Below are positions 7,562-41,100 of a stretch of DNA of 64,000 nucleotides, one piece after another. A program made the position numbers and the translations under genes. The notes below the pieces were generated by a model. That model had not been told where the DNA came from and searched no databases. It saw nothing but the letters and a program-made list of their open reading frames with translations. How positions within the stretch are numbered: position 1 is the first letter of the stretch; every line of letters begins with the position of its first letter. This DNA comes from a bacterium (lineage in GTDB: Bacteria; Auribacterota; Auribacteria; Auribacterales; Auribacteraceae): assembly GCA_024233545.1 (NCBI GenBank), contig JACKPL010000004.1, positions 153,391-217,390 on the forward strand, written 5' to 3'.

Positions 7562-7566
7562 TGATT

Positions 7567-13436: not shown

Positions 13437-13444
13437 TTTCAAAG

Positions 13445-13520
13445 GGTGAGTGAGCGGGTTCGAACCGCCGACCTTCTGGGCCACAACCAGACGCTCTAAC
13501 CAACTGAGCTACACCCACCG
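13445..13520 (-). tRNA. tRNA-His (anticodon GUG) with a genomically encoded G-1 paired to discriminator C
   Basis: The reverse complement folds as a cloverleaf: G + GTGGGTG / TA / GCTC AGTTGGTTA GAGC / G / TCTGG TTGTGGC CCAGA / AGGTC / GGCGG TTCGAAC CCGCT / CACTCAC / C. The anticodon loop is TTGTGGC and the acceptor stem has one G-U pair. CCA is not encoded. Confidence 0.9.
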
Positions 13521-13596
13521 CAAATTTTCCAAACATATTACATAAAGAATCATAATAACTCAATAAAATTCTTATATGCATCTCCGTAATATAAAT

Positions 13597-13630
13597 AAAA
13601 CAGGGGCATATTTATTATGCCCCTGTTTTA
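13597..13630. terminator. Bidirectional rho-independent terminator: AAAA-ACAGGGGCATA-TTTAT-TATGCCCCTGT-TTTA. It is a perfect 11-bp stem with an A-tract on one side and a T-tract on the other. It lies 26 nt past the stop of the giant gene (13656).
   Basis: Perfect inverted repeat read directly from the sequence, with flanking A/T runs in both orientations. Confidence 0.75.
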
Positions 13631-13655
13631 TTACAGCACTTAATGCCGGTTTTTA

Positions 13656-17390: not shown

Positions 17391-17401
17391 GTTATCGCCC
17401 G

Positions 17402-23400: not shown

Positions 23401-26400
23401 AGTCAATTACGGTAACTGCAATAACAGAATCTTCTCCGATAACACCATTATCAAGACGGAATGTTGCCGCCGTGAATGGCGGTTGAGTAACCGGCTCTTC
23501 AGCACGGTCATTAACACTGATTTGCACTTGAGCAATACCACCGTCATCGGTAATATCAAGAGCAAGTGTAACAAGCGAATTCAAGCGTGCATCCGAACCG
23601 TGAGCCGGCGAAAGGATAGCCACATTCGGGGCTTGCGTGTCTGCCACTACTCCATAAGTAACAGGTACCATTGCAGTAGTATTCCCTGCCGCATCACGCG
23701 CAACAGCCCTCACAACAATACTTTGTCCTTCACCGGTGAACGCCGGTACCTGCATTTGAATCGGATACGATGGCGCTACGGTAGAAATACCCATGGATTC
23801 ATTATCCAAGAGCAATTCGACCTGTTGCAGTACAAAATTATCCGTCGCATTAAACGCTACATTCACTCGTTTCCCTTCGACCAATTCAGTGCCTTGAACC
23901 GGCGAAGTAACGAAAATTGTCGGCGGAACATTGTCAAACATTTTTCCAGAATACATTGGTCCATAATTATAATTTGTCGACTCTATTCGGATGATCGGCA
24001 GTAACGTGACCGAATCAACAACGTCTGTTGCGCCGGAACTGCTGGCATCGCCATTAAAGAACAACGCTTTGCCGTCCGGTGTCAATTCGCCAAAATCCGC
24101 ATCATAAAGGTCAAGGCTGACTGTTGCCTCAACTTGCAGAGTATCAGCATTGATCTTGTAGATGGTTTCAGGCCCGGTAACAGTAACAACAAATGCTTTC
24201 GGCCCTTCGGGCGTATATCCTGCCGCAACAGCATATGAACTGCTGTTTAATGCTATAACTTTTTCCACACTTAAGGTATCGAGATTGATAATAAACAATC
24301 TGCTGTTTCGAGTCGACACAAACGCATACGGCGAACCTGCTATGGTTGCAACTTCATACGGTGTATACTGCGATGTTGTGCCCGGTTCAATGGTCGGTAT
24401 ATTTTTGATAATCATACCGTTCACCGCATTCATTACCGTAATGCCGCGTTCCGTACCGGAATGGTTACAAACCAAGATATATTTTTCGTCAGCAGAACGG
24501 AATAAACGTTCCGGTTGGTCAATAGTCTGAAAATCGGATATGGAGAACAGATAGTTAAAACCGGTGTGGCCAAGTGTATCAAATACATCTATCTTATCAT
24601 GGTTAGGACGAGCACAGAACAACAAGTCTTCGTTTTTGGATAACATAAGCGCTCTGGAATAGATGTCATATGTCCCTGTATATTCGTAATCCTGTTCTCG
24701 GTTTCCATTCAAAAGGTTAAAACGATACAATCTCCCGTAATAATCCGTTCGAGCCGTATACGCTTTTTTACCATCTTTTGTAGCAACAATATTGTATGGG
24801 TAATACGAATTGCCGCTTCCATAATCTGCAATTCGCTTATAGGATTTTGCATCAAAGACAGTAAATGTATAGGCACCGTAATTAGGTTTAAGAATAACAT
24901 CCATAAGAAATGGTTTCGAAGCAACCGTGAGAGATACAACACTGCTTACTGCCTGATTGCCGTTTTCATCAAAGGCGCGAGCATAAAGATCAAGTACGGC
25001 TCCCTCGTTTTCCGATAACCTTAACCCAAAGTCATACGGCGCTTGGGTATCGTTGTCAAATAATGCGCCGTTAATATAAAGTTCGACAAGGGCGACCCCT
25101 GCATTATCTGTTGCCGCCACATTGACAAACAATACATCGGTAGCGCCGATTTTATTTCCTGTAGCATTTGTACTGGCAATTGAAACTATCGGAGCAGTAT
25201 TATCGGGAACCACATCAACAAGAATCTGGTCTGACGCGGATGCTCCGCCAAAAGTAAATGCTTCAACTTCTATTACAACATCATTAAGCGGTGTAGATAC
25301 ATCGGGTAATGTAATGGTTGTTTCAAACGGCGGCGTATGCATGATATTGACTACAGTGCCGTCAATTTTAAAATGCATATCCGATACCACTTTCGGGTTA
25401 CTGACATCAACTTTGACAAGCAGTTTTGCACGCGAGGTGTACGTACCCGGCAATGGCGATACCATAGAAACCGTAAACGGTATAACCGCTGATTGATCGG
25501 GTGTTAATAAATATCCAACACCGTTTTCTCCATAAACCGAATACAGCTTTTTAATAATAGTAAAAGAATCAATATCGACAATTGATAACTCGCCCACTCC
25601 ATTTGTCGTTGTTGCAACAAGTAATTTGGTCGGATCAGACTGGGGCACTGTTAGACTCGCAATGTCTCCAAACCCACTCAATGTTGCCATTACTGTATCT
25701 GTCTTGGGATCGATCTTAAAAATAGTATTTTGAGTATCGCTTGCAATAGGTACATAACCTTGCGATGACACACCAGATACTAGGTTTTCAAGGTCATATG
25801 TCAGAGGAATTATCGTTACAAACTGTTTAGTAGCCATATTCATGACTTGGATATCTTCACTGTAATAAGTCGCAAAATAGGCTTTGGTTCCATCTGCAGG
25901 AATTGTAACTTTCCGCAGTGTTTCATTGTTCTGGCTTGGAAATGTCTGAGTGGCCTGCGAAATCAGATTGACTACTGCAATGGTATTCGAGTTATTGATT
26001 GTATAAATCTCTGTCCCATCAGGCGAAATATCCATATCGTAACCGTTAGTTGGTACATAAATAAAACTTTGCATGGTATCAGTCTGAGTATTAATCAGGT
26101 TGATTGTAGTGTTATAATCGAGAACGTATGCCAGATTGAGTTCTGGTTTGAATATGGCTTCCCACTGATTTGTTCCGTTATAAGAAGTAGCCATATTTAT
26201 TGTCTTTACATTATATGTCAACGGATCAATAGCATACATACCTCGTACATTTCCTGAAGCAACATAGATACGGCTTCCGTCAGGCGAAATATCAACTTTA
26301 TTGGCAGAAGTAACCGGAATTGTTGCCTCTATAACTCCAGTCTCAACATTGATAACCGAAACGCTATTCGCACTGGAATTCGGTGAAAGAATTCGGGCAA

Positions 26401-29400
26401 CGAGCGGTACATCAATAGTAATTGTTACAGAATCTGTACCAATATTGCCTGTCATGTCATATGCAGTAACTTCAATTGTTGCTGATTGGTTTGTCATTGA
26501 AGCAGGAATACGAAGGAGCACTTCCCGCTGATCGCTATCGATTACAATCGGCACACCGCCGCTTAGCGTTACCTGAATTGCATCAATACTGCCGCCTATC
26601 GATGATGAATCATCCGCAGTAAACGTAACCAAAACATTGCTGTTTGCATAGACTGTATCATTATCTTCCGGTGAGATAATTGATACAACAGGCGGTGCAG
26701 TATCTTCAAGTACTGACAAATTAACCGGTAAGGATTCGCCGACATTTCCTAACCAATCTGTTGCCCGCAGCTTGATTGAGATATTCGACGCATCGGTAAC
26801 TCTCGGAATCAATACCGATCCTGCAAACGGCAATTCAGGGTCTGTATCAGCCAACAAGACTTGGAAACCTGTTCCGTAATCCATCAGCAGTTCTACCGAC
26901 CGAATAGGCAGAGCATCAAGGATTGAAGCTTCGACAATAAGTTCTATATTTTCGGATACAGATGTTCCATCTAAAGGCGATGTTATAGCAATTACCGGAG
27001 CATCTCTATCATCAGGTATATTGATAACCTGAGTTGCAGTAGAAATACTGTTGTTGAAGAGGTCTCGTGCACGTAACGAGATTGAAAAATCAGTTCCGAA
27101 TTCTTCAGGGCTGACTGGAATACTCATAGTAAATGCCGGGCCTTTTGCCGAATCGAGAGACCTGCCGTTTACAATAAGTTCGACCGTTGCCTGATCGTCA
27201 TCACTCGCTGTTCCCGTAACCACTATCGCATCATTGTCAAACATTATATTTGTAGCCCCAAATACCGGCATACCTTTTCCGACACCAAAATCAAATTCTG
27301 TTAATGTAGTGCTTGAAGACAATCGCGAAACATATACATAATATCCGTGCACTTTAACCGTTTCACACGATGAATTGAGTGTCCATTGAGTCACTAAATC
27401 CAACGACGGGAGCGAATAGACATCAAGACGATCGTATTTTACTTGATAGAGATAATTACCGAATACATCAATACCATCAGAATCTTTTCCAGTATCCGAC
27501 AAATAAAGTATTCTTGTTGGAGTTGCCTTGCTTGTATTGAGATCAAATACAACTATCCCGTAATAATCTATACTTGCATAAAGCTTGTTGTCTTTAATAG
27601 CCAAGCCGTTATGATTATTACTGCTTTGAGTGTCAAGCTGTGCTAATTCCTGCATGTTTGCAGGGTTGCTGACGTTATATGAGAATAATGCATCCTGATC
27701 GCCAACGTACAAATAATTCTTAGTATTATCCAGTATGGCTGAATACGGAAAATCATTTGTCGGGCGAACAAGAGATTGGATAAAAACGGGGTTTTCTCTA
27801 TCAGAAATATCGTAAGAAACAATACTATTGTTATATATCGTAAACAACGTATCATTTCCATTATATACAGCGAAATAAGCATTAAGAGAGATTACTTTAA
27901 CTCGTCTAATCTTTGTGGGCTCGCTAATATCAAATATGTACATCCCGCCTCCATCACTCGGCGCATAGAGATAATCGCCGGCGATAGCAAAATGATATAC
28001 ATATCTGCTGTCCATTGTATCTTGGCTGACTAAATTAAACGTACCGATATCAACAACGCGTATACCGCTACTGCCGCCAAGAAACGCATACTGTCCTCGT
28101 ATCTCAAACCACTCGCAATTTGTAATGTTTATTGAGCGAGTCTGCCCATTGAAAATGAACGCAGGATTAAGCTCGACTACTGCTTCTGAACTTAACAATT
28201 CATCATCAGTCACAATGACATTCAATGAAAGCGGTTCATCCAAATCAGAGTTTGCTACAGTAAAATTCACACTTACCGATGTCGGCGTACCGGGATCGCC
28301 GGTATAGGAATTGTTGTAATAGATTTGCGATCCATTCTGCAATACTTCTATGGTATTGATCGAAGGTGTAAGCCCAAGGTCTTTCACCCTGAATTGCAAT
28401 GTATGAACTGCACCCGCCCTAATGATGTCTCCATCTTCATGCGAAGTAATCTTAACTACGGGGGCGCCATTTTGAGAAGTGGTAATCGTTACGTCAACAG
28501 CATCGCCTTGGTTTCCGGCGACATCGTATGGCGTTACGGTAAACACATTATCGGTCAATAACCCGTTTATTCCAAAGTTAGTTTCAAACGTTACTAAATT
28601 GAGATCAGACCACCCATCCGGTACAGGAAGAGTCACTATATCGAGAGGTTCAGCGCTTCCGCCGGAACCGATTTCAATCTTATCAACCCAAACAGTATCT
28701 CTTCCACTGCATACACTGCCGTCTTTGTAATACATAAACTGTAAATTATGCGTTCCAACAGTTAACGGAGTGCTAAAGAATGTCCATCCCGAATAACCGC
28801 CAACATTGAGCACTAAATTACCATCAACATATAATCGCAATTTATCACAGCATGATTCTGTTTCGAGCTTGTAATAGAACGATATTGTCGTTGCTTCAGG
28901 AATATCAACGGTCAAGAACATCGAACTGTTTTGACTATCCGTTAAAGATGTTGGGCCTTGAGCTGAATACGACCCTTCATATTTTTCGTCAGTAGTAATA
29001 TTCCAGAATCTGTTAGAACTGCCGGTGAATGTCCAAGCTTGTGCGCTGAAATCGCCGGTTTCAAAATCATCAGAATACCCTTGAGAAGGCATAACAAATG
29101 CGGTTTCATCAAAATCAATGACGATATGGTCGACCGCAATATTATCGGTAACCGTAATCGCAACATCAAGCAGTTCGCCGACTGTTCCTTGAGTATCCCC
29201 TGTAACATTCTGGACAACAGGATTGATGGTATCTTCACCGATATTCAATGTGATTAACGATGTATACCCAACATTTCCGCTTAAATCCATTACGCGGGCC
29301 TGCATAGTTACCGAACCGGCATTTTGTGCATAATAGTACAGTTCATAAGGCGGCACAAAATCTTTCTTGTATGGTTTTCCGTCAACAAGAAATTCTACCG

Positions 29401-29644
29401 TCACCGCATCTTTGTTTGTGACATCAACTTCAACGATCGCCGTATCATCGAGTAAAATGGTGTCATTGTCAGAATGCGATACGATGTTTGCTATCGGTGC
29501 ACCAGTTTCAAACGCATTCAATTCATATACACGCACACCATTATTATAATTACAGACAAAAAGCAGATTACCGTATATATCCATGTTGCGGAAAGTGTTG
29601 CTTCCAGAAATTGTACCGAGCAGTTTAATATTATTGCGAATAGC
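17402..29644 (-). CDS. Giant-gene segment 4, 4060 aa from the ATG at 29584. The frame is open and repeat-like back to a TAA at 29645-29647. It has an N-terminal LVIVD-type repeat and no signal peptide, then Ig-like domains and a MAM/CBM-like jelly-roll with Cys pairs (about 28640-29075). At least three YVTN-type beta-propeller repeat arrays follow, interleaved with tandem Ig-like domains.
   Basis: ORF translation. YVTN repeats include DISPDGSRIYVASGNVRGMYAIDPLT, LAYVLDYNTTINLINTQTD, EIYTINNSNTIAVVNLISQ. The in-frame sequence upstream of the ATG (AIRNNIKLLGTISGSNTFRN-MDIYGNLLFVCNYNNGVRVYEL) continues the LVIVD-like repeat. Confidence 0.8.
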   Translation of the reverse strand, partial: AIRNNIKLLGTISGSNTFRNMDIYGNLLFVCNYNNGVRVYELNAFETGAPIANIVSHSDNDTILLDDTAIVEVDVTNKDAVTVEFLVDGKPYKKDFVPPYELYYYAQNAGSVTMQARVMDLSGNVGYTSLITLNIGEDTINPVVQNVTGDTQGTVGELLDVAITVTDNIAVDHIVIDFDETAFVMPSQGYSDDFETGDFSAQAWTFTGSSNRFWNITTDEKYEGSYSAQGPTSLTDSQNSSMFLTVDIPEATTISFYYKLETESCCDKLRLYVDGNLVLNVGGYSGWTFFSTPLTVGTHNLQFMYYKDGSVCSGRDTVWVDKIEIGSGGSAEPLDIVTLPVPDGWSDLNLVTFETNFGINGLLTDNVFTVTPYDVAGNQGDAVDVTITTSQNGAPVVKITSHEDGDIIRAGAVHTLQFRVKDLGLTPSINTIEVLQNGSQIYYNNSYTGDPGTPTSVSVNFTVANSDLDEPLSLNVIVTDDELLSSEAVVELNPAFIFNGQTRSINITNCEWFEIRGQYAFLGGSSGIRVVDIGTFNLVSQDTMDSRYVYHFAIAGDYLYAPSDGGGMYIFDISEPTKIRRVKVISLNAYFAVYNGNDTLFTIYNNSIVSYDISDRENPVFIQSLVRPTNDFPYSAILDNTKNYLYVGDQDALFSYNVSNPANMQELAQLDTQSSNNHNGLAIKDNKLYASIDYYGIVVFDLNTSKATPTRILYLSDTGKDSDGIDVFGNYLYQVKYDRLDVYSLPSLDLVTQWTLNSSCETVKVHGYYVYVSRLSSSTTLTEFDFGVGKGMPVFGATNIMFDNDAIVVTGTASDDDQATVELIVNGRSLDSAKGPAFTMSIPVSPEEFGTDFSISLRARDLFNNSISTATQVINIPDDRDAPVIAITSPLDGTSVSENIELIVEASILDALPIRSVELLMDYGTGFQVLLADTDPELPFAGSVLIPRVTDASNISIKLRATDWLGNVGESLPVNLSVLEDTAPPVVSIISPEDNDTVYANSNVLVTFTADDSSSIGGSIDAIQVTLSGGVPIVIDSDQREVLLRIPASMTNQSATIEVTAYDMTGNIGTDSVTITIDVPLVARILSPNSSANSVSVINVETGVIEATIPVTSANKVDISPDGSRIYVASGNVRGMYAIDPLTYNVKTINMATSYNGTNQWEAIFKPELNLAYVLDYNTTINLINTQTDTMQSFIYVPTNGYDMDISPDGTEIYTINNSNTIAVVNLISQATQTFPSQNNETLRKVTIPADGTKAYFATYYSEDIQVMNMATKQFVTIIPLTYDLENLVSGVSSQGYVPIASDTQNTIFKIDPKTDTVMATLSGFGDIASLTVPQSDPTKLLVATTTNGVGELSIVDIDSFTIIKKLYSVYGENGVGYLLTPDQSAVIPFTVSMVSPLPGTYTSRAKLLVKVDVSNPKVVSDMHFKIDGTVVNIMHTPPFETTITLPDVSTPLNDVVIEVEAFTFGGASASDQILVDVVPDNTAPIVSIASTNATGNKIGATDVLFVNVAATDNAGVALVELYINGALFDNDTQAPYDFGLRLSENEGAVLDLYARAFDENGNQAVSSVVSLTVASKPFLMDVILKPNYGAYTFTVFDAKSYKRIADYGSGNSYYPYNIVATKDGKKAYTARTDYYGRLYRFNLLNGNREQDYEYTGTYDIYSRALMLSKNEDLLFCARPNHDKIDVFDTLGHTGFNYLFSISDFQTIDQPERLFRSADEKYILVCNHSGTERGITVMNAVNGMIIKNIPTIEPGTTSQYTPYEVATIAGSPYAFVSTRNSRLFIINLDTLSVEKVIALNSSSYAVAAGYTPEGPKAFVVTVTGPETIYKINADTLQVEATVSLDLYDADFGELTPDGKALFFNGDASSSGATDVVDSVTLLPIIRIESTNYNYGPMYSGKMFDNVPPTIFVTSPVQGTELVEGKRVNVAFNATDNFVLQQVELLLDNESMGISTVAPSYPIQMQVPAFTGEGQSIVVRAVARDAAGNTTAMVPVTYGVVADTQAPNVAILSPAHGSDARLNSLVTLALDITDDGGIAQVQISVNDRAEEPVTQPPFTAATFRLDNGVIGEDSVIAVTVIDSVGNSASTSITLNVLEPVFDIIVAASYNQREIHRLDFNGMTSVLNAPGGTNSGQFTDMASTHDGEYLFALSASTSQSFNKIRVYKMPQGTLVREIDDTGTFKGRFSSIVIDKNDRFAYVSTEWNSSSSSPTGNSKIVVLDIPVCIDPESTGDPIFTTSYDGPSLYNNSGEYVRVNLALSHSGNTLWAASPSTYNSSTYYSRRWTVTNLESTGSLPSAIAMNYGWDVENYFDGTNDLIYMPYSTDDYRKFHADTGSNYYNVDINVNNGNISIGKVSDTLSVMAIAYRSSNIIYIRKIEGGLSSDSYTSIANVSLPYVPMDSDFTPDGKYLFVYYQSNTGYSVIKTSDWSHTYYPTSGIYRRILMSTATDAVNPTIELAADPVKESYLVGEEVSLVATVDDNQGVEFVEYYLNGGLLGTDAQTPFAFPFVGNVPSGATPFEIQAKAYDFAGNSALSSIITITVVDDSIAPTVTIAAVTDLVGVNAGMPVVVTANAQDNASISRVEYTLFDGVNSSTAVATVPPYQTILYLDDNVSNSQVFTITAVAVDGAGNVSDLSNILNGITSPETFVKQGKLFSIAYTSAYRLFVTDDITHATTELLINNADYIKISPLQYGFLFRQGNDEVIVFNKFTREIVKVFTYSDGFDGPRDIAFDAVRKLAYITSAYNNKVMVVSLESLTVVHQITTSNTGTRLYYPWSVVVTPDGQYLYVSNQSFTYSDPTYSRILVFNLDDYSEVKRYSDSSGVGLDYEMVMLPYGNKAYITNTNNNGTLYEIDTASTSFTQIKTNVGGQYPVGGLTPMGLRVFMFYDSPDDIYMYNPETGEAELWLDMASLPSIYAMDISDDGRYLYMATSNNYIRKIEIATKNIEDIAMPIGTRDVDYHLLTIFDTVPPSIVLNGVPSSATEGTALTFTALPTSSIGIRNVSLYINGERFEEKIVGPYSFTYRVPVDVASFEVYAQVTDVSGIRAQSAPQTVTVLNDTDAPVVSIVIPEDNETAYADSFVVLNVEISDATDNIKFVQVLYNGVPVKFLGTEAYLNLGGAPYQTSIPIEEDALEASATIEVIAVDYAGLMTSDSVALTVVRSDYNQLLMVNNAGALFDLDTNTLIAGDLGISTGVNFVATDAKYHQQRDQLFIAMYDTQSEREQLGMVDFNAQVFSYRTGNQYFRTQTVELAEQNSQLFALLFPEYPFDYVTVMNIDSPSTSPYGYQYIRGARGTVTAPDGRIYIAEYGYEDGSHPSYWCSRITNYDLTTGNGSLTGFTSASAYRGTAINLNQAGNILYVGRFYQSANQYEIARIDTGPFTSAAGLFRTVDSEISSIESVVISGSERILAALPDNDTILVFDPTTLNEVDSWSVPSPDRLQFDTIENALFVFSKADNLIAKIDVETGTVVAQNSVAGPVAVFGRINKLLPDVAVPVVTIVSPLDNESYFEGHLLSIQISAVDENIDAIEMFYNNIKAETINANGQSSLTILKRLPIIDGASDVLTIEVRAKDMFGNIGRSDKIAITILDDTEAPAVTMTEPIAGQTVIGGSWVDVIGVSTDNSGTQSMVEIIEIYFDNDIIDVLSPEEDGTFDRPIVIPVNVYSDPMTVGVIAQDYAGNRSSKISVQVNLLFEAEPTAGYDDRDVYDTYVLDDKLYITSYQILEVYDISSLIPGGGGEGESGVGETGIGGELEFAGSELSFLGNVPRISTANRLVYTSTANPYSLYHFVVENGFIYGVGTYSGWSSTQFIVMGASFDPYDFNLKAQIQLDDETIENREGVILLNGDRAYVGHDDGVWVLNVRFPNSPVVLPGIEDNDSGTLALEATEDNLYRLTRRGQIHVYELDNLELLQTITLYTPAPEAPLPDFGDLEVKDSVLYATDEIGGLFSVGITQTPLSFGTPAFILIDDLDGEMPMGIDSIGDFTVIHGMNDVFFLDTSSLGSEIVLGSVSQFTNVPIEYQITDCYIYGNQLIVQSGEAAIVNIYHDLGGAPTVELDLPADINDRHYIGGESSVLIPFDA

Positions 29645-30090
29645 TTAGCATCCCATACAGCAATACCGGTTAGCGTTGAGTTGCTCGAAACAAATGCAAT
29701 ATCGCCGATTGATAACAGACCGCCCCATTGATAATTGTGTCCTGATGGGGATTCGGTATCAACCCATGATCCCGTAGCAGTAGCGCTTGCGCCTCGCGCA
29801 TCAGCAACAGCTATCCGGCTACTTCCTACAACCAACACATAGTCGCTATCTAACGCCTGCAGATACCGAGTATAGTAATAATAACTATTGTTCAACCAGT
29901 TATTTGTCGTTCCTGACAGCGTTTCGACATCAGAAATATCTGCATTTAACAATGAGAAATACGGATTGGAATACTCACCTGTCCAATATGCCATATTGCC
30001 TTCCAACCATACACCAAATGCATAATATGAGCTGGTTTTACTGCTGTAGTATTTCGCTCGCCGACATAACGGTAAGACAACGTAGGCACG
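29645..30090 (-). CDS. Giant-gene bridging segment 3, in the third reading frame (track ORF 29518-30006, 162 aa, starting at TTG). It carries protein-like LVIVD-type sequence and connects segment 2 to segment 4 through two frame changes.
   Basis: The frame-C translation is ...YAFGVWLEGNMAYWTGEYSNPYFSLLNADISDVETL...DSDYVLVVGSSRIAVADARGAS...IAFVSSNSTLTGIAVWDAK. It is protein-like precisely where the flanking ORFs' own frames turn into non-domain-like text. Confidence 0.65.
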
Positions 30091-33000
30091 GTCGGATTCG
30101 TATAATTCACATTTGAAATATCGAGCACCTGTAGTTGATGCCTGTATGCCGCCGTAAAAGCATACTGTCCGCGCACTTTAACATCATACACATTTCCATT
30201 TGTACCGAAATTATGAGTTCCGACATGAACAGGCTGAACCGGGTTCGCAATATAATACGTACCCAATCCGGAAGATGCGCGGGCAACATAGACAAAATCA
30301 CCTTGATAATCAATATTATGAGCGGCTGTCGTAGAGAAAGTACTTTGCGACCTGTTGATGAGATCAATCACCGCTAAACTTGAATTGTTTGCCACATACA
30401 TCCACTTCGGCGACACAGTTGTCGGTAAACTGGATTGATTCGTAACAGGATCACCGACCACATACACATCTTCTGCGGCAAATGATCCGCCGGTAACACT
30501 TCCATTGTTGTACAGACGGTATAATTCGCCCGAATTAGTGATTTCCCTGATAGCAAAAGTGGTAATGAGTTCAACAGGCGCAGTAATGGTGAAATTATCA
30601 CTGATATCTTCAGCACGCACTTTAAGCTCTGTAGTGTGGCCTGCATTCCCGGGGACAGTCAAGGAATACGAATAAGGAGTGGTTGTATCGGTAAACACTA
30701 ATGCACCGTCAACAAAGAATTCTACTGCGCTAATTAAACCGCTATCTTGTACATTCGCTTCAATTGACACCACTGATAGCCCTGCAATAACTTCTAACCC
30801 GTTAACCGGTGATGTTATTGTAACCGACGGCGCCGATAAGTCATCAGTCACCGCAAAAGACTTTTCAGCTAAGAGAGTTACATTGCCGTTAATATCCTGC
30901 ACTGCGCCCGATATCACGAGCGGAAGAGGAGGATTGCCCAAAGGCAATGGCACGTTTTGAATAGTGAACGGCGGTTTATTAAATAATGTTTGTACGCCGT
31001 TGACATTAACTGTAACAACCTGAATACCTAGATTGTCCTGAGCCGATATATCGACCGTAGTTGTTGTTCCTTCAAGGAGGAACTTATCATCGGTAGGCTG
31101 AATAATACTTATAACAGGAGATTCATTATCTTCCAAAACAGTAACAGCAACTTCCAGTGCTGATGTGAACGTAATATTTCCACCCAAATCAATAGCATTT
31201 GCATTGATAAGAAGCGTTGAAGGCCCGCTGTTCGGGGCAGTAAGATAATCGAATTGGAATGGAACAGTATTATCTACTGCGACCACTTCACCATTAACAA
31301 GAAATTCGATAGTAACGCCAGTATCATCTGTTGCAGAAGCGGTCAACAGGATTGAATTGCCTTCAATGACTTGAGTCGGCACAACGCTAACGGATTGAAT
31401 TTGCGGAGCTTCCAACTGGCCGCTGATAAGCCTCAGCAATCGTATTCCGCTGGTATCGTTAGCAATATATGCAATGTCGCCAACCACATCGATATCAATA
31501 GCATCAGCTCCGGTACTTGCATTTCCTACTAATGTCATCTCAAATGGATTCTCAACGTTAACCATTGCTATTCCATTTGTTCGGTCTGAAACAAAGGCGA
31601 TAGAACCGACAACATCCACGTATTGTGTTTGACTTAATCGATTAGGACCGGATAACTTGCGCGCCAATCCCATACCGATTAATTCTGCAGTTTGCTCTTT
31701 AAGCTGATATGACAACAAACCAATACCATAATCGGCAATATATACAATATTGTTATTGATACTGATTCCTCGCGCATCGCCGGAAGTGTCGTAGGTATTT
31801 TTTAATACCGGTGAACGAGGGTTACTTATATCGATTGTAGCCATACCATTTGTACCTTGAGTCAATATAAGCACATTACCTTGAATTGCTATTTTCTTCG
31901 GCCCTGTTACCGATATTTGCGAACCTGAAATTTCAAATGGCGTTGCAGGGTTATTTAAATCAAGCACGGTTAATTTATTTGCCGTTTCATCTGAAACAAA
32001 AGCAAACTGGCCGCGAACCTGTACATCATTAGCGCTTGAGAATATATTTCCCGTCTCGCCAATAAATTCCAATTCTTCATTTTCAAACCTGAAAATCACA
32101 AAATTCGTAGATGTTATTGCATATATTGTATTTTGAATGACTACCAGATCACTAATAGTATACGTTGCATCACTCGTAACAAGGCTGATATTGAGCGGAT
32201 CGGATATATTCAATACAACCAAGCCGCCTGCACCGTCAGCAACGAACGCATAATCGCCGACTACTCTCATATGAGTTGCATCAGTCGTCGGGAAATCAGC
32301 TAAAAATTCTGTACTAATGATAATATCAAGAGTAATCGGTGCAGATATTCCAACTTGCCCTACCGAATCGATCGCTTTAGCACGGATATCTACCACAGCG
32401 CTTCCCGTACCGTTTGGTATCTTGACTGTACCGGCATAAGGTGCAGTTGTATCGACTACTGATGCGCTGTCGTTATCCTGAACACCATCAACAAAAACGA
32501 AGAACCGAACGCTTTGTATTTGCCCGACATCGTCTGATGCATCTGCCGTTGCAGTAATTTCCGAACCGGACGCAACAACGGTATAAACAGGTGGAGAGGT
32601 CACAACCACATTCGGCGGCAAATCGCCCGTAATGGTTCCTGTAATAGTCACCACCGTACTAGAATCTCCTGCATCGTCTGTTGCGAAAACAGATATTGTC
32701 ATGGTCTCGCCTTCAGCTGTCGCAGGGATAGGATAATTACTCACTGTATACGGCGAAGAATTTCTCACAAATTGCTGAGTAATCGGCGCACCGGCTCCTT
32801 GAGATATCTCAATATCAATTGTAACTGATCCGATTAGCGGAATCTGGTTATTATTGACATCTTGGTCATACGCAAAAGCCTGAATGGTAAGAACATCACC
32901 TTCAGTAACCTCAAAACCATTAACCGGCGCAAGGAATCCCGCAATCGGCGGTATATTAGTTAGCGCGTTTACCGTTGCAGTGGCAGTACTGGACACCATC

Positions 33001-35108
33001 GTTTCATCAAATGCTGTTGCTGATACCGTTACAGAATAATTGCTTGATGCAACCGGCAATACAAACGATGCCGCATAGGGATACGTTGTATCATTCTGAT
33101 TAAACAGAATTGTACCGTTGTCATATTCTGCAGTAAAGGTTACGCCGTACACAGCAATATCATCTGTTGCCTGAGCACTGATCGTCACTGAATTACCCAT
33201 GAGCTGACGCGGCATAACCGATAAATTGGACAAGGTTGGCGCTTGATCGGAACGTTTGGATATTGTAACCGTCTCGGATGGCGAAACGTTTCCATTGATG
33301 TCGATTGCGGTTACCGAAGCGCTTGCTTCCGTTAATCCTGACGCCAAATGAGTCATTCCCAGTTTATTTTCCGCAACATCGAGAATGCTCTTATTCACTT
33401 TAATCATTGTGTACTGCCAGTTTTCACCCGGCACGAAGAACACCGTTTTGCCCGACAATGTTTGATTGAGTTTCCGAGCTGTCCCATCAAAATAATCGAA
33501 CATTGCACCACCGGGCGCTCCCTTAATATAATAGTTCTTAGACACATCAATCAAACTCACTGTAGGTGCACTTGTTCCGGGCGTAATACCGACAATACCT
33601 GTTACTGAATCGAAATCTTCATCGGTATTTGTTGTGCCATACGTAATCTGAATAAGCCCTGTTTTAAAGAGTGTTATCTCATAGTGGTTAATTGAACTTG
33701 TCGAACCATAGACACCTAAATAGAGGTGATAATAAAGGATTAACCTATCAGGATACTGCGCATATGCAACATACCGGTTATACGGAGATGAATATGCATA
33801 ATCCCACCATTGCTGGTCAAACACCGCTGATATGCGTGGACGGGTATTCAGGAAAGCATCTATTGATACTGTCTGGTCATTATCACCCTGAGCTTGGCTG
33901 GAATTGCCGCTAAAGGTCAAGAACCCGCTGTTATGAATGTAAACCGTCGAATACGTAGTACCGTAAAATGGGAATGTAAACCCTTGGCTAAAATTAAGAG
34001 TCATTGGGTTTGTATCATAATAATAACCTGTTAAATTTCGGGCAATACCTAAATATCCAACCTCACTGACCACATCGTTGAAGGTTCCGGTCAAGTCAAC
34101 GCCTTGCGCTGAGAGGGTGTAATCAACAACCTTAATATTATCGGTTGCAGTTGCCATTACCAGCATTGACGATCCGTCAACAAACTGTTGGCTCGTCGGT
34201 AAAATTACAGAAACAGAAGGCGGATCGAAGTCTTGTAACCGATTGATAGTCCGAGTTGCAATCGCCACATTGCCATTGATATCAACCGCTCGTACCGTAA
34301 ATACCACTTGCTGAGGATCAACCGGGCCTTGTTCGATTTCATGTGCCAACTGTAATGAAATCGGTTGTGCAGTAGGCACAGCGTTGTATATCTCAACATT
34401 ATTCGCTGAAATAATTATGTGCTCAACAGTAAGGTTATCACTGGCATCAATGTTGAGATTAACAATCGTTCCTTCAAAGAAATTTTCATTTTCGGACGGT
34501 GTATTGATTGCAATAGAAGGAATCTGGTTATCCATCAATGTTGCAAACGATATCGGATCAGCAAGATCACTTTCCATACCGGAAAGATTTATCGCGCGCG
34601 CAGTATACTCATATGGTATTCCTGCCGATCCCGGAGCGGTAAGATGATAAAATTCATAGGGTGCTTTATTCGCTATGCCCGCAGGCTCACCGTTAACAAA
34701 GAATTCTACTGTGATATTGCCCGGCACATCAGGCACTGCTGTAATTATCGCAGTCTCGCCTTCAATAACATCGGTATCATCAATCTGCATTGTTAAGGAC
34801 GGCACTGCGGTTTCACCGAAATCAAGCCTTGCAATCATGAGGTAAGAATTAGTCAGTGGCGATATCAAATAGTTTCCTACTATTTTCATTTCACGCAAAT
34901 CATTGCCGACACCAAGTTCGCTATGTGACAAGGCATTGATCTGTTCAATATCACTCGGATTCGAAACATCATACACAATCAGCCGATTTCCACTGTCATC
35001 ATTTTGGAATAAATACTGCCCGATAACTTCAATGGTGCGCACTTGGAAAGCGCCTGTTGCACAACCGGCTTGAGTCAACGTATTTTTATTTAAATATATA
35101 CGCCTTCC
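29946..35108 (-). CDS. Giant-gene segment 2, 1710 aa from a TTG at 35078, with the frame open to 35108. It has LVIVD beta-propeller repeats, tandem Ig-like domains and no signal peptide. Its last ~45 codons (below about 30087) look out of frame relative to bridging segment 3.
   Basis: ORF translation. LVIVD repeats include AIQGNVLILTQGTNGMATIDISNPRSPVL, IVYIADYGIGLLSYQL, QYAFTAAYRHQLQVLDISNVNYTNP. Confidence 0.8.
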   Translation of the reverse strand, partial: GRRIYLNKNTLTQAGCATGAFQVRTIEVIGQYLFQNDDSGNRLIVYDVSNPSDIEQINALSHSELGVGNDLREMKIVGNYLISPLTNSYLMIARLDFGETAVPSLTMQIDDTDVIEGETAIITAVPDVPGNITVEFFVNGEPAGIANKAPYEFYHLTAPGSAGIPYEYTARAINLSGMESDLADPISFATLMDNQIPSIAINTPSENENFFEGTIVNLNIDASDNLTVEHIIISANNVEIYNAVPTAQPISLQLAHEIEQGPVDPQQVVFTVRAVDINGNVAIATRTINRLQDFDPPSVSVILPTSQQFVDGSSMLVMATATDNIKVVDYTLSAQGVDLTGTFNDVVSEVGYLGIARNLTGYYYDTNPMTLNFSQGFTFPFYGTTYSTVYIHNSGFLTFSGNSSQAQGDNDQTVSIDAFLNTRPRISAVFDQQWWDYAYSSPYNRYVAYAQYPDRLILYYHLYLGVYGSTSSINHYEITLFKTGLIQITYGTTNTDEDFDSVTGIVGITPGTSAPTVSLIDVSKNYYIKGAPGGAMFDYFDGTARKLNQTLSGKTVFFVPGENWQYTMIKVNKSILDVAENKLGMTHLASGLTEASASVTAIDINGNVSPSETVTISKRSDQAPTLSNLSVMPRQLMGNSVTISAQATDDIAVYGVTFTAEYDNGTILFNQNDTTYPYAASFVLPVASSNYSVTVSATAFDETMVSSTATATVNALTNIPPIAGFLAPVNGFEVTEGDVLTIQAFAYDQDVNNNQIPLIGSVTIDIEISQGAGAPITQQFVRNSSPYTVSNYPIPATAEGETMTISVFATDDAGDSSTVVTITGTITGDLPPNVVVTSPPVYTVVASGSEITATADASDDVGQIQSVRFFVFVDGVQDNDSASVVDTTAPYAGTVKIPNGTGSAVVDIRAKAIDSVGQVGISAPITLDIIISTEFLADFPTTDATHMRVVGDYAFVADGAGGLVVLNISDPLNISLVTSDATYTISDLVVIQNTIYAITSTNFVIFRFENEELEFIGETGNIFSSANDVQVRGQFAFVSDETANKLTVLDLNNPATPFEISGSQISVTGPKKIAIQGNVLILTQGTNGMATIDISNPRSPVLKNTYDTSGDARGISINNNIVYIADYGIGLLSYQLKEQTAELIGMGLARKLSGPNRLSQTQYVDVVGSIAFVSDRTNGIAMVNVENPFEMTLVGNASTGADAIDIDVVGDIAYIANDTSGIRLLRLISGQLEAPQIQSVSVVPTQVIEGNSILLTASATDDTGVTIEFLVNGEVVAVDNTVPFQFDYLTAPNSGPSTLLINANAIDLGGNITFTSALEVAVTVLEDNESPVISIIQPTDDKFLLEGTTTTVDISAQDNLGIQVVTVNVNGVQTLFNKPPFTIQNVPLPLGNPPLPLVISGAVQDINGNVTLLAEKSFAVTDDLSAPSVTITSPVNGLEVIAGLSVVSIEANVQDSGLISAVEFFVDGALVFTDTTTPYSYSLTVPGNAGHTTELKVRAEDISDNFTITAPVELITTFAIREITNSGELYRLYNNGSVTGGSFAAEDVYVVGDPVTNQSSLPTTVSPKWMYVANNSSLAVIDLINRSQSTFSTTAAHNIDYQGDFVYVARASSGLGTYYIANPVQPVHVGTHNFGTNGNVYDVKVRGQYAFTAAYRHQLQVLDISNVNYTNPTVPTLSYRYVGERNTTAVKPAHIMHLVYGWKAIWHIGQVSIPIRISHC

Positions 35109-38100
35109 TCATTTGCGGCCGCATAGAGGTAATTGCCGTTAATTTCTATGTCGCGAATATTTTTACCACTTAATGCAGTAGTTACAAACACTGGAACCGG
35201 ACCGTTGGCAATACTATAAATCTTAACGCCATCGCCACTGGTTGCAATATAAAGTTTGTCTTCCGAATACAATACTCGTGTATAAGTGTAGCTACCATTC
35301 CTCGATAGATGCGAAATAATCTGAGGCATCGTGGGTCTAATCAAATCTATTGTATACAAGCCGTCATCATAATCCGCTATATATGCATAACGTCCGACAA
35401 CTGCCATGGATAAGGTATCATCACCAAGAGCATCGATATTGCCTAATGTACTCAATTTTGCATAATCATCGGTGATAAACTTAAATGTCTCTAAGCCTCC
35501 ATCATATGACGCAACATAGATTTTTCCATTCGCAATGCTCGAATCATAATAGGTATTGCTCGTGCTCAGCGTTTTCACTATTGATACAGGAAGGTAGACA
35601 AAACCATTCTGATCATAATACTCAACTTCCATATTCGGAGCAGGAACAAAATTGTTGTGATTCGCGCCGGTAATAATTGTCTCTATGTAATCGATAACAA
35701 TATTCCCCGGATTAGTGAAGTTAATGTTAATAACACCGTCTTCAAACGAAGGCATGAGCGATGCAGGAACGTTTAGCGTAGACAACGTTATACTGCCATC
35801 CGGTAAACTGATCGACTGGAATGACTTCAATTTATCCGAAAGGTTAGTATTCTCAACCTTGATTGTGTTTTGGTCTCGTTCGCTATTTTCCACATCGCCG
35901 GCGAGGACTTTTATCTGAGCGTATAATGGCGTAATGCCAGCAAGTGAAAATCCCTGAACCGCAGTGAAGGCACCTGAAAATAACCAACCATCGGTATATG
36001 TTGGGTCGGTCGCCTCGGCATTCGTAAAGAAATCGTTGGGATAACTTACCGCGCCGTCAATATCAAAGTCAGGCAAAACTCCGCCTTCTGCAAGCGGCGG
36101 AATAAAGCCGAAACCGTCTTTATCTCCTGACAAAACTACTACTTGCGTTAGCGAATCTGTACTTACTAGCAGTTCAAAATTTTTCAATTGATGCCCCGAT
36201 CCATACGGTTGATGGATACGAATCCTGCTTAAATCGATCGGCTGGCTAAAATACCACCATGCCGTTTGATCAACAAAATTCGGACTCCTTGCCCACCCAT
36301 TCCCTGAAGAAGCGATAACGCCATCATATGTCTCAGAAAGCGGATAGCCGCTTTGCTCAAAAGTTGCTCGCGAATATGCTATGCCAACTGGTGTTTCGCT
36401 AAATTCACTCAAGAATTCTATTTCGCCTAATACGAAATTATTATTTGAAGCAAACGTATTGATAACACGCAGTTTAACCATACCCGCATTAGGAATGGTG
36501 TCAAACGCAATTTCGATATATCCGGCGCCCGGATCAACGGGAACGGTAATCAACCCGCCGTTTATTTCCACATCTTTTTGAGCGTAATTTGCCACTCTAA
36601 CTGCACTGCCCGACCCAAAGGTTATATAGTCACGGTTTGCATCAAGCAATTCGAGGGTACTGGTACTCACTTGATTGACCACTTGTATGCCAACCACAAT
36701 TTCAATAATATAGGTTATAGTTTCACGGACATGCGGCACTGGCGGATGCGTATCAATCACGCGCGCTTTTACCCCAATCAACTCGCCTATTCTATCTGAA
36801 GGTATGCGGAACGAACCGCTCGTATCGAACAATTTATACTGGCTTGAACTCGGCGTTTTTACAGAAACAATGTGTTCTTCTAAATTTCCATCACTATTGC
36901 TGTCAAACGGATCATTCACCACCAGAAATTCGACACGAGCCATGCGCACATCATCGGAGGCGCTCACCGAGAAAGTACCGAATGCTCCTGCTGAGAACTT
37001 GTTATCATCAGGAAGATTGGTGAAGTTAATCGATGGAGGCGCATCGGCAAGAAGATTTACCGTAATCGGGTCTGACGGCATAGATTGCGAAGAATTGTCA
37101 ACCGCAACCGCATGCAACAACGCTTTACGCGACAACGTCGGATGAGAACCGCCCGACAATCCGAATCCATTGATTGAATAGTTCACGCCATTATCGGTAA
37201 CCGTTCCACTTATTTGATCAAGAGACGAATTCAATTGTAAACTCATTGCACTAATTTGATGGAGCGCATTATTAAGGATAAAGGTGATCGGCTCTACCAA
37301 TGATAGCGAATTATTTGTATTGTATTTTACTCGAGCATTTATGACAGTATTATTACCGCCAGATGACAACGTCATTCTTAAATCTGCTAAGCTGTTATAC
37401 TGTATAACTTGAATTGATGGTACAGCCAATAACGGCCATGATGTTGTGCCGGTGTACGTACCTGAGAAGTTGGGTGCGTAAATCGGCATAGCAATAGTTG
37501 CAATATAGAGATTCCCGCTGGAGGCGCTTGTATCTACTCCTTTATATTCATTATCAGCATAAAAATCAACTCGCGACATACCACGGTCATCTGTAGCGAC
37601 AGCACGTACTTCAATACTTGAACCTTCAAATGCATTCGAATTCGATGCCGGTTGAGTCATGCTCACTACTGGCGGATCATCATCATCAATATCAATCCGC
37701 ATTGCACTAGATTGTACTGTATGAGCCGCCACATCAACCGAACCGCCATAGTTATCTCGCAATTTCACATACACCGTAAAATATTTAACGGCCGGACTCT
37801 GAATTTCAGGAGCAGTAGCAGTATACCTAAAGTAACTCGCGCTATATCCTGAACTCGTCGATGAATCACGTCCTAGATAGATATCATTATCCCATTCAGA
37901 ACCATTCCATACATTCATATAGAAATCGCAATAATTGAACCAGCGGTCGTCATTCTTCGGTGAACTTACCACAAAATCAATGTTGAAGCTATTAAACTCT
38001 TTGACACTCGCCGGTAAACGGAATTCATCGCCGACGATGACAGGCGGTTCATCTCTTTTTACAAGCAACTGCCGAGTGATAGGTTGAATATGCCACACAT

Positions 38101-41100
38101 TATATCCATCTCTCACACGTGCCTCAATGATATCAACACGCGTTGCAACAGTCGGCAACCATCCCGGAGAATAACTCCAACTGCTTGATGCACTGAACGT
38201 TGAAGAAGCAGTATAGCCCCATGCCGCTTTTTGTGAACCGTTGATCCAGATTTCTGTTCGGTTTATACCGCCGGTAGAATCAGGGTCGGTAGCGCTTATC
38301 GCAATTGTAAAGGAGTTTCCTTCAATAACCGATTGCGCATCGTTTGCCGGTGCAGTAATTGTCACAACAGGAGGCAAATCATCGGTTACTGTTACGGCTA
38401 CAGACGGAGCCCATGGATTTCCTGTTTGACCGATGCTGTCAATAGCATAGGCGCTGACATGAATCGTAGCAGGAGCAATTCCAAATGGTACCGTGTAATT
38501 ATAATCATAGGGCGACGATGTATCAGTTTTGACGACAGTACCGTCAACAGTAAATACTACAGATTGTATTCCGACATCATCGGTAGCGGTAGCCTGCATT
38601 AGTATTTTACCGCCCTCGATCACTAGAGTACCACTACTGAATGCAGTGATAACTGGTTTTGCGTCAAGCACAACTTCGCCTGACACTGACGCCAATGCAA
38701 TATTTCCAGCCGCATCAACAATTTTAACATTAACTACAGCAGGGCCATTAGGCGTCGCATTGGGCACAGTATAGTTTTTATTAAAGGTAAACCTGAATTC
38801 ATTCGTTGGATCCTGTACTAACGTCACTCCGGTAATCTGAACCGTATTGAAACTGACTGTAATCGAATCGAGCAACCGATCACCGGTTACTGATCCGCTA
38901 ATATTCAACACTGCTCCTTGTTTAATGGAAAAACTGCTCGCAGGCGTTGCTAATACGATTGTTGGAGGAGTTGTGTCTTCTTGCCGGGTAATCGTTATCA
39001 GTTGTGACGGCGAAACATTTCCGTTAATGTCAGTTGCAATAACGTCAAACTCAATGATTGACGATGGCGTTCCACCGATAACCGGTACTTCATATACAAG
39101 AGAAATATCGTTAAACGGCGGAGCACCGAATAATGCAAAAGTATCATTATCTATAAGAATTTCAATCTGTTGCACAGCTACATTATCAAGAATATTTGTC
39201 ACATTGATATTGTACTTTAACCCTTCGGTATATGTTAAACCATGAACAGGGTTTACAATAGTAAATGTCGGCGGTTCCATATCCGGAACAGAAAGAATTG
39301 TTATAGGATCAGAGTCAACAGAATTTCCTGCAACATTGCGCGCACGGGCAAAGATTTCAAAGACCGTTCCCGCAGTATCAACCGGAATAGGCAGATGCAT
39401 AATTGCCGGCTCAGACCAATCATCTATATGCGCTAATTGCCCATTTACATAGAATTCAACCATCGCATCGGGATCATTCAAGCCTTGTGCAATAACCTCA
39501 ATATCAGTTCCCTCACTTGCATTTGAGCCGCTCGCCGGAACAGTAATTTGTAGTCCCGAAAGGATTGTGGAATCACCAAAATCTGCATTATATAAATAGA
39601 ATCGGTTTCCTGCTTTGATAAAAATCATATTGCCCAGTAAATAGCTGTCAACAACAGGATTATTTAACTTCATGAGGCCTAGGCTCTCGAGCGATTCTGT
39701 GGCAAGTACCTCAATTTCTCCCGAACTTAGCGTGACAAGCGAATGATATCCTCCAACAACCATATCAATGCCCGAACCTGCAAGGTTTAAGAAATTGTTT
39801 AACGAAAGATCGACATCTCTAAGAAGCAAATAATTATCATCAAACAATACTTGCATTTCATCGCCAATAAGTTTTAAGTGGCTTAAGGACGAAACACCGA
39901 TTTCATTCATATTTTTTGTGTACAATGAAATAGGATTTATCGGGTTTGTGATGTCATACACATTTATTGCATGTGGTTCTCCAACATATAGACTGCCGAA
40001 TTCTACTGCAACAGGCGAAATAGAATCGTTTTCAAATTCCACAAACGGCTGAGTTAACGATTTAATATTAACCACTTTCAAACCTTCGCTTGTCGCAACA
40101 TATACAAAGTTCCCTGCAGGCAGGATTGAGTGAATCGTAGGCAATGCAAGGGATGATATGATATGGCTATTGCCGCTCCAACCTGTTTGAGGGTTGCGCG
40201 CATCGATGATTACTAATTGCTGTGCAAGCACAACCAAGAGATATCCATGCTCATAAACCATATCTTTTATCGTACCGGCAACAGTACAACTCCCCACCAA
40301 ACCAGGAATAAATTTAGGTGTTGTACTCTCAACTTCAAGCACTTGCCCGACAAGATTCGTTACAGGTATAAAAGTTGCACCATCGGTACTTACTTCTATG
40401 CTTATATCTTTGATTCGCGAATTTTGTACTGAAGCATATTGGAATAAATCAATGCGGTTAACAGATGTAAGGTTTGTAACCGTATATGTTCCAACTGATT
40501 GAGGGAAGCCGCCCCATCCATTGTCCGTTGAATTTATTCCTTTATTTCCATCGATTGATTCGCTTATCACAAACCCCTGTTTATTTGAATTTGCGACAGA
40601 GAAAAGGAAATTAATTTTCGTACCGGATGTATTAAATGCTTCTATTTCGCTTAAGATAAAATCACTAAATGTATTATTTATTCTTAAACGAATCATCAAT
40701 ACATTGTCAACAGCATCGAAATTCAAGCGATATAAACTCTGGCCCGGATCATAATCAACAGTCATACGGTTATTTTCAAAATGAACCGCATCATTTGTTA
40801 TATCAACTGCTTTAATTTTGCTGCCGTCCGCGACAAAAACAATATTACCTGCTGGAGCAATTCCTTTGCCGGAAGCAGAATCCAACGCCACAGTATTGAG
40901 TTCTTTTAAACTCAAACCGATAGCAATCGTAACTTCAGCCGATGTTGTTGATGTATACCGGTCATATGCCACACCCTTTAAATTGACCGTTGAACCAAAT
41001 GGCTTTGCAGGAAGCATACCCTGAGCAACCCACTCGCCGCCTATCAACGAGGCTGTTCCGATAACTGCGTTATCAGCAAGCAACTCTACCTTTTCAATAC

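Follow-up and report, generated by a model that had tools for sequence, protein, structure and literature searches.

In the giant genes described by West-Roberts et al. in 2023 (bioRxiv 10.1101/2023.11.21.568195), two adjacent genes merged into a single one of 74,983 aa once a local assembly error had been corrected. The locus studied here, in a window of 64,000 nt of DNA that was analysed as a whole, resembles that case in having several very large same-strand ORFs arranged head to tail on a metagenomic contig that merge after a tiny correction, and in the encoded protein, a long series of repeats of extracellular-type domains. It differs in that their correction was verified with reads, whereas the repair proposed for the window gene rests on sequence and model, and in that their genes belong to Omnitrophota and encode 30–85k aa, whereas ours belongs to a relative of Candidatus Auribacter, encodes at least 16.8k aa and has its own architecture of Ig-like domains and propellers. 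A second point of comparison is provided by proteins with LVIVD (PF08309) and Big_7 (PF17957) domains: the blades flanking the region of interest and numerous further modules score above the Pfam thresholds, and the fused module described below is modelled as a 7-blade-type propeller, although the blades encoded in the bridging frame have diverged too far to be recognised by the LVIVD model. Finally, as occurs at the programmed −1 frameshift sites of dnaX and of IS3-family transposases, overlapping frames could here be joined by a −1 shift, but the breaks in the window show neither slippery heptamer, stimulatory structure nor conservation, and four of them stand in a row inside folded domains.

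Our results show that positions 13656–63997 of the window (minus strand, as for all the features given here) are a single giant gene, interrupted by four breaks. When one base is inserted at each break, a single ORF of 16,781 codons is obtained, which is a lower bound, as the ORF runs beyond the window edge and its start lies outside the window. An ORF of more than 10,000 codons is present only after the four repairs, segment 1 alone having 9,635 codons and being cut by the window edge. The encoded protein, with at least 16,781 residues, is modular, Ig-like domains (Big_7, Big_5 and TIG) alternating with beta-propellers of the LVIVD and lactonase types, and is probably located at the cell surface. 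Segment 1 (35093..63997) is in frame class 1, the class being the remainder of the first-base coordinate divided by three; it is open to the window edge in the ORF list and contains Pfam matches to TIG, Big_5, Big_7 and LVIVD. The truly coding part of segment 2 (30057..35092, class 2) ends in PTLSYRYVGE and is supported by Pfam matches to Big_7 and LVIVD (120.7 bits for the whole of ORF2 against LVIVD) and by tblastn of two orthologues, P0014 and P0155. Then come the bridging coding segment (29646..30054, class 0), of about 136 codons from KYYSSKTSSYYAFGVW to IAVWDA(K), and segment 4 (17405..29644, class 1), of about 4,080 codons, with Pfam matches to Big_7 and to a lactonase-type propeller. 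Segment 4 is covered by a single tblastn HSP (P0014 q1940–5974 against 29638–17432), and it is annotated from an ATG at 29584, yet its coding extends upstream as far as break 3. Segment 5 (13656..17404, class 2) provides the C-terminal ~1,250 codons and stops at TAA 13658–13656, which is followed by a second TAA; in tblastn the ends of both orthologues coincide with the end of ORF5. A terminator-like GC hairpin with a T run lies 3′ of the gene (13601..13625), a similar hairpin being found after the orthologue in L085, and directly downstream ARAGORN places a tRNA-His(GTG) (13444..13518), which also follows the Candidatus Auribacter fodinae orthologue.

All four breaks are of 3n+2 bases, so that each is the loss of one base or the gain of two, and each falls inside a structural domain: LVIVD blades flank break 1, a lone propeller spans breaks 2 and 3, and an Ig domain spans break 4. 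Break 1 (35090..35108, class 1 to 2), located by three-frame translation within GGAAGGCGTATATATTTAA, cuts an LVIVD propeller; there are LVIVD matches on each side, the fused sequence scores 37.5 bits, and the top-scoring repair adds one base at 35094–35090. This break is outside the coverage of both orthologues, which extends over breaks 2, 3 and 4. At break 2 (30052..30062, class 2 to 0) the window reads GTC GGC GAG CG AAA TAC TAC AGC AGT AAA where the orthologue has GTA GGT GAA AAA TAT TAC AGC AGT AAA, and the DNA alignment leaves two surplus bases, the CG at 30056–30055; either this CG is extra or one base has been lost beside it. The alignment thus puts the shift at ~30057–30054, inside the interval 30030–30090 that had been proposed in the preliminary description of this region, and moves it to GAG-CG-AAA, away from a run of four A (30039–30036) that we had considered as the site of a homopolymer deletion. 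Break 3 (29639..29648, class 0 to 1) lies within GCTAAGCTAT, where frame 1 is closed upstream by TAA 29647–29645. The same description had placed a single-nucleotide indel at about 29645; the site holds, the break being at 29648–29639, but a gain of two bases would fit its frame class as well as the loss of one. Break 4 (17402..17408, class 1 to 2), within CGCGTAA, cuts an Ig-like domain: an internal Ig profile of 92 positions aligns over positions 1–91 through the junction, the N-terminus of ORF5 begins at position 36 of that profile, and in tblastn the break is flanked by P0155 q4311 and q4313. Scoring of the repairs against both orthologues favoured removal of 2 nt at breaks 2–4 by 15–20 BLOSUM62 units, while anchor-to-anchor length counts are ambiguous between one base lost and two gained.

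Breaks 2 and 3 sit 410 nt apart inside the same propeller domain, which explains why the coding sequence passes through each of the three frames and why a 162-aa "bridging ORF" arises. Three-frame translation of the region reproduced every string quoted in the preliminary description, as well as the end of segment 2 at TAA 29946–29948 and the 162-aa ORF at 29518..30006. The third frame reads YAFGVWLEGNMAYWTGEYSNPYFSLLNADISDVETL as far as IAVWDAK, and the frame of segment 4 reads AIRNNIKLLGTISGSNTFRNMDIYGNLLFVCNYNNGVRVYEL after its closing TAA. The bridging frame is open over 220 codons (about 30180 to 29518), while off-frame sense-strand stretches elsewhere in the gene (n=2,494) average 12 codons, the longest of them reaching 131. 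A codon-usage likelihood trained on 36001–63997 passes from class 2 to class 0 near 30040–29990 and on to class 1 near 29650–29600, and showed no non-coding gap across these frame changes. This signal and the colinear orthologues bear out the successive use of the three frames. When the sequence is repaired, the resulting 312 aa are predicted by AlphaFold2 to form one complete beta-propeller (pTM 0.82, pLDDT 78, ~24 strands), in which residues 120–256 are contributed by the bridging frame, and a Foldseek search with this fused model gave TM scores up to 0.73, the top matches being all 7- or 8-bladed propellers. Likewise, with a profile built from the propeller modules of this gene, the fused sequence reaches 89 bits, whereas the separate frames give 44.5 and 13 bits. 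The bridging segment encodes roughly three middle blades of one beta-propeller. The earlier claim of indels inside one ORF, as opposed to gene boundaries, agrees with this single fold and with the single-ORF orthologues.

The third frame had also been called an LVIVD-type repeat. Its propeller character is upheld by the orthologues and by the fold model, but the LVIVD label is not: a Pfam scan of the 202-aa frame-0 translation gave no LVIVD match, the bridging frame reached E values of only 0.11 and 1.9 against a blade profile from the rest of the gene, and the 34.5 bits that the fused local sequence obtains against Pfam LVIVD (cut-off 20.2) come from a match within the frame-2 part. The propeller nature of the bridging segment thus follows from orthologue alignment and fold model, not from LVIVD sequence similarity. 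What had been described as ~45 non-domain codons at the end of segment 2 has to be shortened to the last 36, since PTLSYRYVGE is genuine. These 36 codons (29946..30056; RNTTAVKPAHIMHLVYGWKAIWHIGQVSIPIRISHC and a stop) are an out-of-frame tail, RNTTAVKP...ISHC, that matched nothing in the orthologues or in Pfam, while the third frame over the same DNA does match the orthologues; judged by these comparisons, the tail is not real protein sequence. The bridging ORF ends in a similar out-of-frame tail of 41 codons (29518..29645; LFAIILNC...VCVYMN and a stop), over which the codon-usage signal is already in class 1.

The orthologue P0155 is RJP60711.1 (C4541_03625) of Candidatus Auribacter fodinae, a partial protein of 5,539 aa, and P0014 is a 7,267-aa protein from the Illumina-derived Logan contig SRR28093593_142485; each is encoded by a single ORF. 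In tblastn both give colinear chains of HSPs on the window that pass from frame class 2 to 0, then to 1 and back to 2, successive HSPs being 1–14 residues apart, and the class-0 HSPs over the bridging segment comprise P0155 q275–430 and P0014 q1831–1934; here the third frame has KYYSSKTSSYY where the orthologue has KYYSSKSSSYY. They share with the window gene a common C-terminus and 30–53% identity over the last ~7,000 residues, but their ORFs are uninterrupted, whereas the window copy is broken at three positions of the shared region. The P0155 locus is syntenic (giant gene, terminator, tRNA-His, trpC-F-B-A, NTP-transferase, ruvX, M16 and rpe), even though housekeeping proteins are only 51–72% identical between the two lineages, TrpB being 72% identical. 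Since the giant gene has stayed intact and syntenic over such divergence, long-term selection acts on it; slippage-prone runs are also strongly depleted in its sequence. In word-indexed protein searches, the stretches fused over breaks 2/3 and over break 4, as well as 1,200 aa taken from segment 4, had only remote matches (≤39% identity). Collections of genome and metagenome contigs were scanned for peptide motifs and for a DNA motif that allowed one extra base, and no second copy of the gene was found.

Are the breaks present in the organism? We lean towards the view that they are residual consensus errors of the assembly and that the organism carries one uninterrupted ORF, as its relatives do. 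In this record tiny insertions or deletions split one giant ORF into five pieces, and the separately annotated proteins, the out-of-frame tails of 36 and 41 codons and the start codons inside the gene are artefacts of the breaks. Consensus error is favoured because ~16,780 codons contain no nonsense codon and no larger deletion, because the four lesions share one frame class, and because a distant relative has a conserved, unbroken copy of the gene in the syntenic position. The merger of giant genes described by West-Roberts et al. sets a precedent. The window proteins have accessions MCP5462443–54 and those of HK-STAS-VERR-2 have MCP5530833–36, both organisms having MCB11xxxxx twins; this adjacency is circumstantial, and suggests that the record belongs to a batch of activated-sludge MAGs. 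That set was assembled with Flye from error-prone Nanopore reads and then polished with Illumina reads, with a reported median quality of ~Q39–40 (PMC8518188). Such a quality corresponds to about one error per 8–10 kb, near the observed density of four lesions in 50.3 kb, or one per 12.6 kb. The same single ancestral gene could instead have been recently inactivated by real indels and be decaying in the sampled population, an alternative that we regard as possible and less probable than consensus error; in that situation only segment 1, truncated at 35090, or nothing would be made. It gains from the flank 1033–11962, which is 99.83–99.97% identical to three independent assemblies without a single indel although it includes 38 homopolymer runs of ≥6 bases and four of ≥8, so that, wherever a comparison is possible, the record is free of indel errors. 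At a rate of 4 per 50.3 kb, however, a flank with zero indels has a probability of 0.42, which makes this argument weak both ways. Homopolymer error is disfavoured as the source of the breaks, as none lies in a run of more than 3–4 bases, the ten runs of ≥6 bases within the gene all keep the frame and the 8-mers of the flank are correct. The apparent 2-nt gain at break 2, in a non-repetitive context, is likewise atypical of Nanopore or Illumina error. A 50-kb ORF is also a very large mutational target: a neutral divergence of ~6e-4 per site, in agreement with the 0.03–0.17% divergence between conspecific flanks, would bring ~3 further indels. In addition, other assemblies of the same species (99.9% identical in the flanks) contain no tested part of the giant gene, their contigs ending 1.7–2.4 kb before it, which suggests a variable locus. 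Against inactivation, four frameshifts of one class with no nonsense codon or larger deletion would be expected in roughly a few percent of cases under a natural mutation spectrum, and the long-term selection on the gene, its depletion in slippage-prone runs and the agreement of the lesion density with the reported error rate of the probable assembly method all weigh in the same direction.

The remaining explanations differ in what would be translated. Programmed recoding, in which slippage of the ribosome (−1 or +2) or of RNA polymerase restores the frame and full-length protein is made, would account for the identical −1/+2 correction needed at all four breaks, and a GCG(A/T)A sequence is present on one strand in each break window. 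This motif was chosen post hoc among 184 such sites in the gene, and we set it aside as evidence. None of the four break windows contains an X XXY YYZ heptamer, the 86-nt downstream folds are no stabler than shuffled sequences (z = +1.1, +1.3, −0.06 and −0.26; range −0.26 to +1.26), no homopolymer is suited to transcriptional slippage, the orthologues cross breaks 2, 3 and 4 without a change of frame, so that the shift site is not conserved, and with four inefficient shifts in series hardly any full-length protein would be made. We therefore consider recoding very improbable, and equally so its variant in which genuine breaks with heptamer-independent recoding at GCG(A/T)A sites would be a lineage-specific gating of the expression of this 50-kb gene. 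Least probable of all is that the boundaries are native and that five separate genes, including a real protein of 158–162 aa, are independently translated. NCBI does list the pieces as distinct hypothetical proteins, and a TTG at 35078 and an ATG at 17390 each lie 11 nt after a TAA. However, a folded domain is cut at every junction (propeller at breaks 1–3, Ig at break 4), the annotated bridge ORF starts and stops within a propeller, the annotated ORF ends are out-of-frame tails without homologue, and orthologues and coding signal continue unbroken over the junctions. The separate-gene reading is thus effectively refuted.

With consensus error as the preferred explanation, the finding is correct but ordinary, the breaks being more likely leftover assembly errors than biology. 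Its main consequence concerns annotation: five "hypothetical proteins" in a public MAG (among them H7A34_04655 and H7A34_04660, and including a spurious one of 158 aa) belong to a single gene with at least 16.8k codons, and giant genes elsewhere are hidden by similar splits. Should the breaks be real, the record would have caught a 50-kb gene of long conservation very soon after its inactivation in a wastewater population, a modest though usable example of giant-gene turnover. In both cases, an Auribacterota-type lineage retains a giant surface protein made of Ig-like domains and propellers, encoded at a conserved locus beside tRNA-His and the trp operon. As a separate observation on this operon, a scan of contig collections for TrpB gave best matches of ≤69% identity.

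Five large ORFs lie head-to-tail on the minus strand: segment 1 (35090..63997; 9,635 aa, open at the window edge), segment 2 (29946..35078; 1,710 aa), a bridge ORF (29518..30006; 162 aa), segment 4 (17402..29584; 4,060 aa) and segment 5, or ORF5 (13656..17390; 1,244 aa). Insertion of one base at each of four breaks yields a single ORF of 16,781 codons, so that together the breaks turn an ORF of at least this length into five annotated pieces. According to Pfam, the whole gene codes for successive Ig-like domains (TIG, Big_5 and Big_7), among which propellers of the LVIVD and lactonase types are interspersed; it is followed by a terminator-like hairpin and tRNA-His, and farther downstream by intact housekeeping genes (SulP, trpC-F-B-A, an NTP-transferase, an M16 peptidase and rpe). 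The frameshifts as such are ordinary, and the biology behind them is a giant surface-protein gene, which is interesting but has precedent.

Three-frame translation of 29440-30260 recovered every string quoted in the preliminary description, which had seen all three frames used in turn. With frames named by first-base coordinate modulo 3, segment 2 is in class 2, the bridge in class 0 and segment 4 in class 1. The bridge frame is free of stops over 220 codons; off-frame sense stretches in the rest of the gene (n = 2,494) average 12 codons and reach at most 131. A codon-usage log-likelihood trained on 36001-63997 places the coding frame first in class 2, then in class 0 and then in class 1, and no non-coding sequence intervenes. 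The use of three frames is confirmed, at a level far above what chance would give.

When 1.84 billion cluster representatives were scanned exhaustively with HMMER, two proteins matched the fused query without interruption along its full length of 337 residues: P0008 (5,523 aa), which clusters with P0155 (RJP60711.1, from Candidatus Auribacter fodinae), and P0014 (7,267 aa), from Logan contig SRR28093593_142485. Nucleotides 1-19 of this contig are the Illumina Nextera transposase adapter AGATGTGTATAAGAGACAG, so the apparent start of this orthologue at nt 94 is a contig-end artefact and its ORF is 5'-truncated. In tblastn both proteins form colinear chains on the window. P0155 aligns through residues 1-261 (30839-30054, class 2), 275-430 (30015-29554, class 0), 401-575 (29638-29117, class 1), 566-4311 (28699-17411, class 1) and 4313-5539 (17405-13659, class 2), and P0014 through 876-1797 (32804-30060, class 2), 1831-1934 (29961-29662, class 0), 1940-5974 (29638-17432, class 1) and 5982-7265 (17405-13662, class 2). 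Both orthologues share the end point of ORF5. The locus of P0155 is syntenic with the window (giant gene, hairpin, tRNA-His, trpC-F-B-A, NTP-transferase, ruvX, M16, rpe), and its TrpB is 72% identical to that of the window, above every one of 80 GTDB representatives; the window's source organism is thus related to Ca. Auribacter, whose orthologous gene is one ORF through the second, third and fourth breaks. A word-indexed protein search missed the annotated proteins of the window itself (P0005, P0009) and a 46%-identical orthologue, all recovered by the HMMER scan, and its negatives for this repeat-rich protein are thus weak evidence. Between window 4092-17390 and the Ca. Auribacter fodinae locus QZJZ01000024.1 the neighbourhood is conserved, with housekeeping identities of 51-72%, although SulP and a DMT-type gene are inserted after the tRNA in the window only and an extra U32 peptidase is present in QZJZ01000024.1.

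The third frame had been described as an LVIVD-type repeat. Its propeller nature is borne out by the orthologues and a fold model; the LVIVD match is not, as the bridge frame has no Pfam hit. Against a blade profile from the remaining gene this frame gives E-values of 0.11 and 1.9, and against a whole-propeller-module profile the fused sequence scores 89 bits (the frames taken separately give 44.5 + 13 bits), in one alignment crossing both the second and third breaks; sequence alone thus weakly suggests a propeller. The 312 repaired residues, aligned with the orthologues and three remote homologues, were modelled as a single all-beta domain (mean pLDDT 78, pTM 0.82), for which the top PDB matches (TM up to 0.73) are without exception propellers of 7 or 8 blades. 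Since model residues 120-256 derive from the bridge frame, one structural domain is encoded across three reading frames.

The orthologue alignment relocates the second break to GGC GAG CG AAA (30062-30052), where the window reads GAG-CG-AAATACTACAGCAGTAAA and the orthologue GAA-AAATATTACAGCAGTAAA, and where frame 0 gives KYYSSKTSSYY against KYYSSKSSSYY in P0155. The third lies within GCTAAGCTAT (29648-29639). The junctions near 35090 and 17405 call for the same -1/+2 correction; these breaks (35090-35108 and 17402-17408), outside the range first described, are of the same 3n+2 class. LVIVD blades flank the first break on both sides, and at the fourth a 92-position Ig-domain profile, derived from 114 internal copies, aligns over its full length through the junction, the annotated N-terminus of ORF5 beginning at profile position 36. 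We scanned every one-base addition and two-base removal, scoring the second to fourth breaks against both orthologues; two-base removal was favoured at these three and one-base addition at the first, but gap placement leaves this preference uncertain and we claim only 3n+2 at each break. A GCG(A/T)A site occurs on one strand in each break window (GCGTA at 35087-35111, GCGAA at 30049-30065, TTCGC at 29633-29651, GCGTA at 17399-17414); this motif, picked post hoc, has 184 sites in 50.3 kb, and its presence could reflect chance or a methylation-motif basecalling effect.

Split domains and continuous orthologues exclude native gene boundaries and support the earlier proposal of indels within one ORF. 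Programmed frameshifting was also rejected, as the breaks have neither slippery heptamers, downstream structure nor conservation in the orthologues. We lean towards residual consensus error of the assembly: Nanopore/Flye assembly followed by short-read polishing would leave errors that break one intact ORF. The window proteins (MCP5462443-54, locus tag H7A34, on a 232,180-bp contig) share an accession block with HK-STAS-VERR-2 (MCP5530833-36), and both organisms have twins in the MCB11xxxxx block; the record probably belongs to the HK-STAS project, although this link is circumstantial. The HK-STAS MAGs are Flye assemblies of 86.7%-accurate Nanopore reads, then short-read polished, and the method gave a median quality of Q39-40 on mock genomes (PMC8518188). 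At this quality about 5 residual errors would be expected in 50 kb, where four breaks are observed. West-Roberts et al. report such a case in a different giant gene.

Recent inactivation of the giant gene by real mutations is a possible, if less favoured, explanation. The flank 1033-11962, present in three other assemblies at 99.83-99.97% identity, has no indel despite 38 runs of at least 6 bases and 4 of at least 8, and only a single base unique to the window; the breaks, moreover, avoid homopolymers. Against inactivation stand four frame breaks of one class with zero nonsense codons in about 16,780 codons, the long-term, syntenic conservation of the gene, and the probable, circumstantially linked HK-STAS origin. 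Protein searches and genome and metagenome contig scans found no independent copy of the giant gene. The three other assemblies of the species end at 1033 and at 11280 or 11962 (in or near SulP), and none contains any tested part of it, although no 31-mer is repeated within the gene. Its locus may vary between strains, or may be micro-diverse and so difficult for short-read assembly.

The giant gene (13656-63997) is strongly depleted in homopolymers, with 10 runs of at least 6 nt (0.2 per kb) where shuffled sequences give about 51, whereas the neighbouring CDS (718-13369) shows the opposite trend (28 runs, or 2.5 per kb, against about 12 expected); the depletion could stem from selection to avoid slippage in a 50-kb ORF or from amino-acid composition. 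Repeated 21-31-mers occur in the window at 198-1025 only, in the 3' part of a 980-aa ORF (718-3660; DUF2963 match), as a tandem or dispersed DNA repeat at which Logan contigs L001 and L003 end. Finally, in a 25-nt stretch of the M16 peptidase gene (5773-5797), seven substitutions 3-6 nt apart separate the window from a contig of GCA_020440625.1 that is elsewhere about 99.9% identical, and this cluster looks like a short recombination tract.
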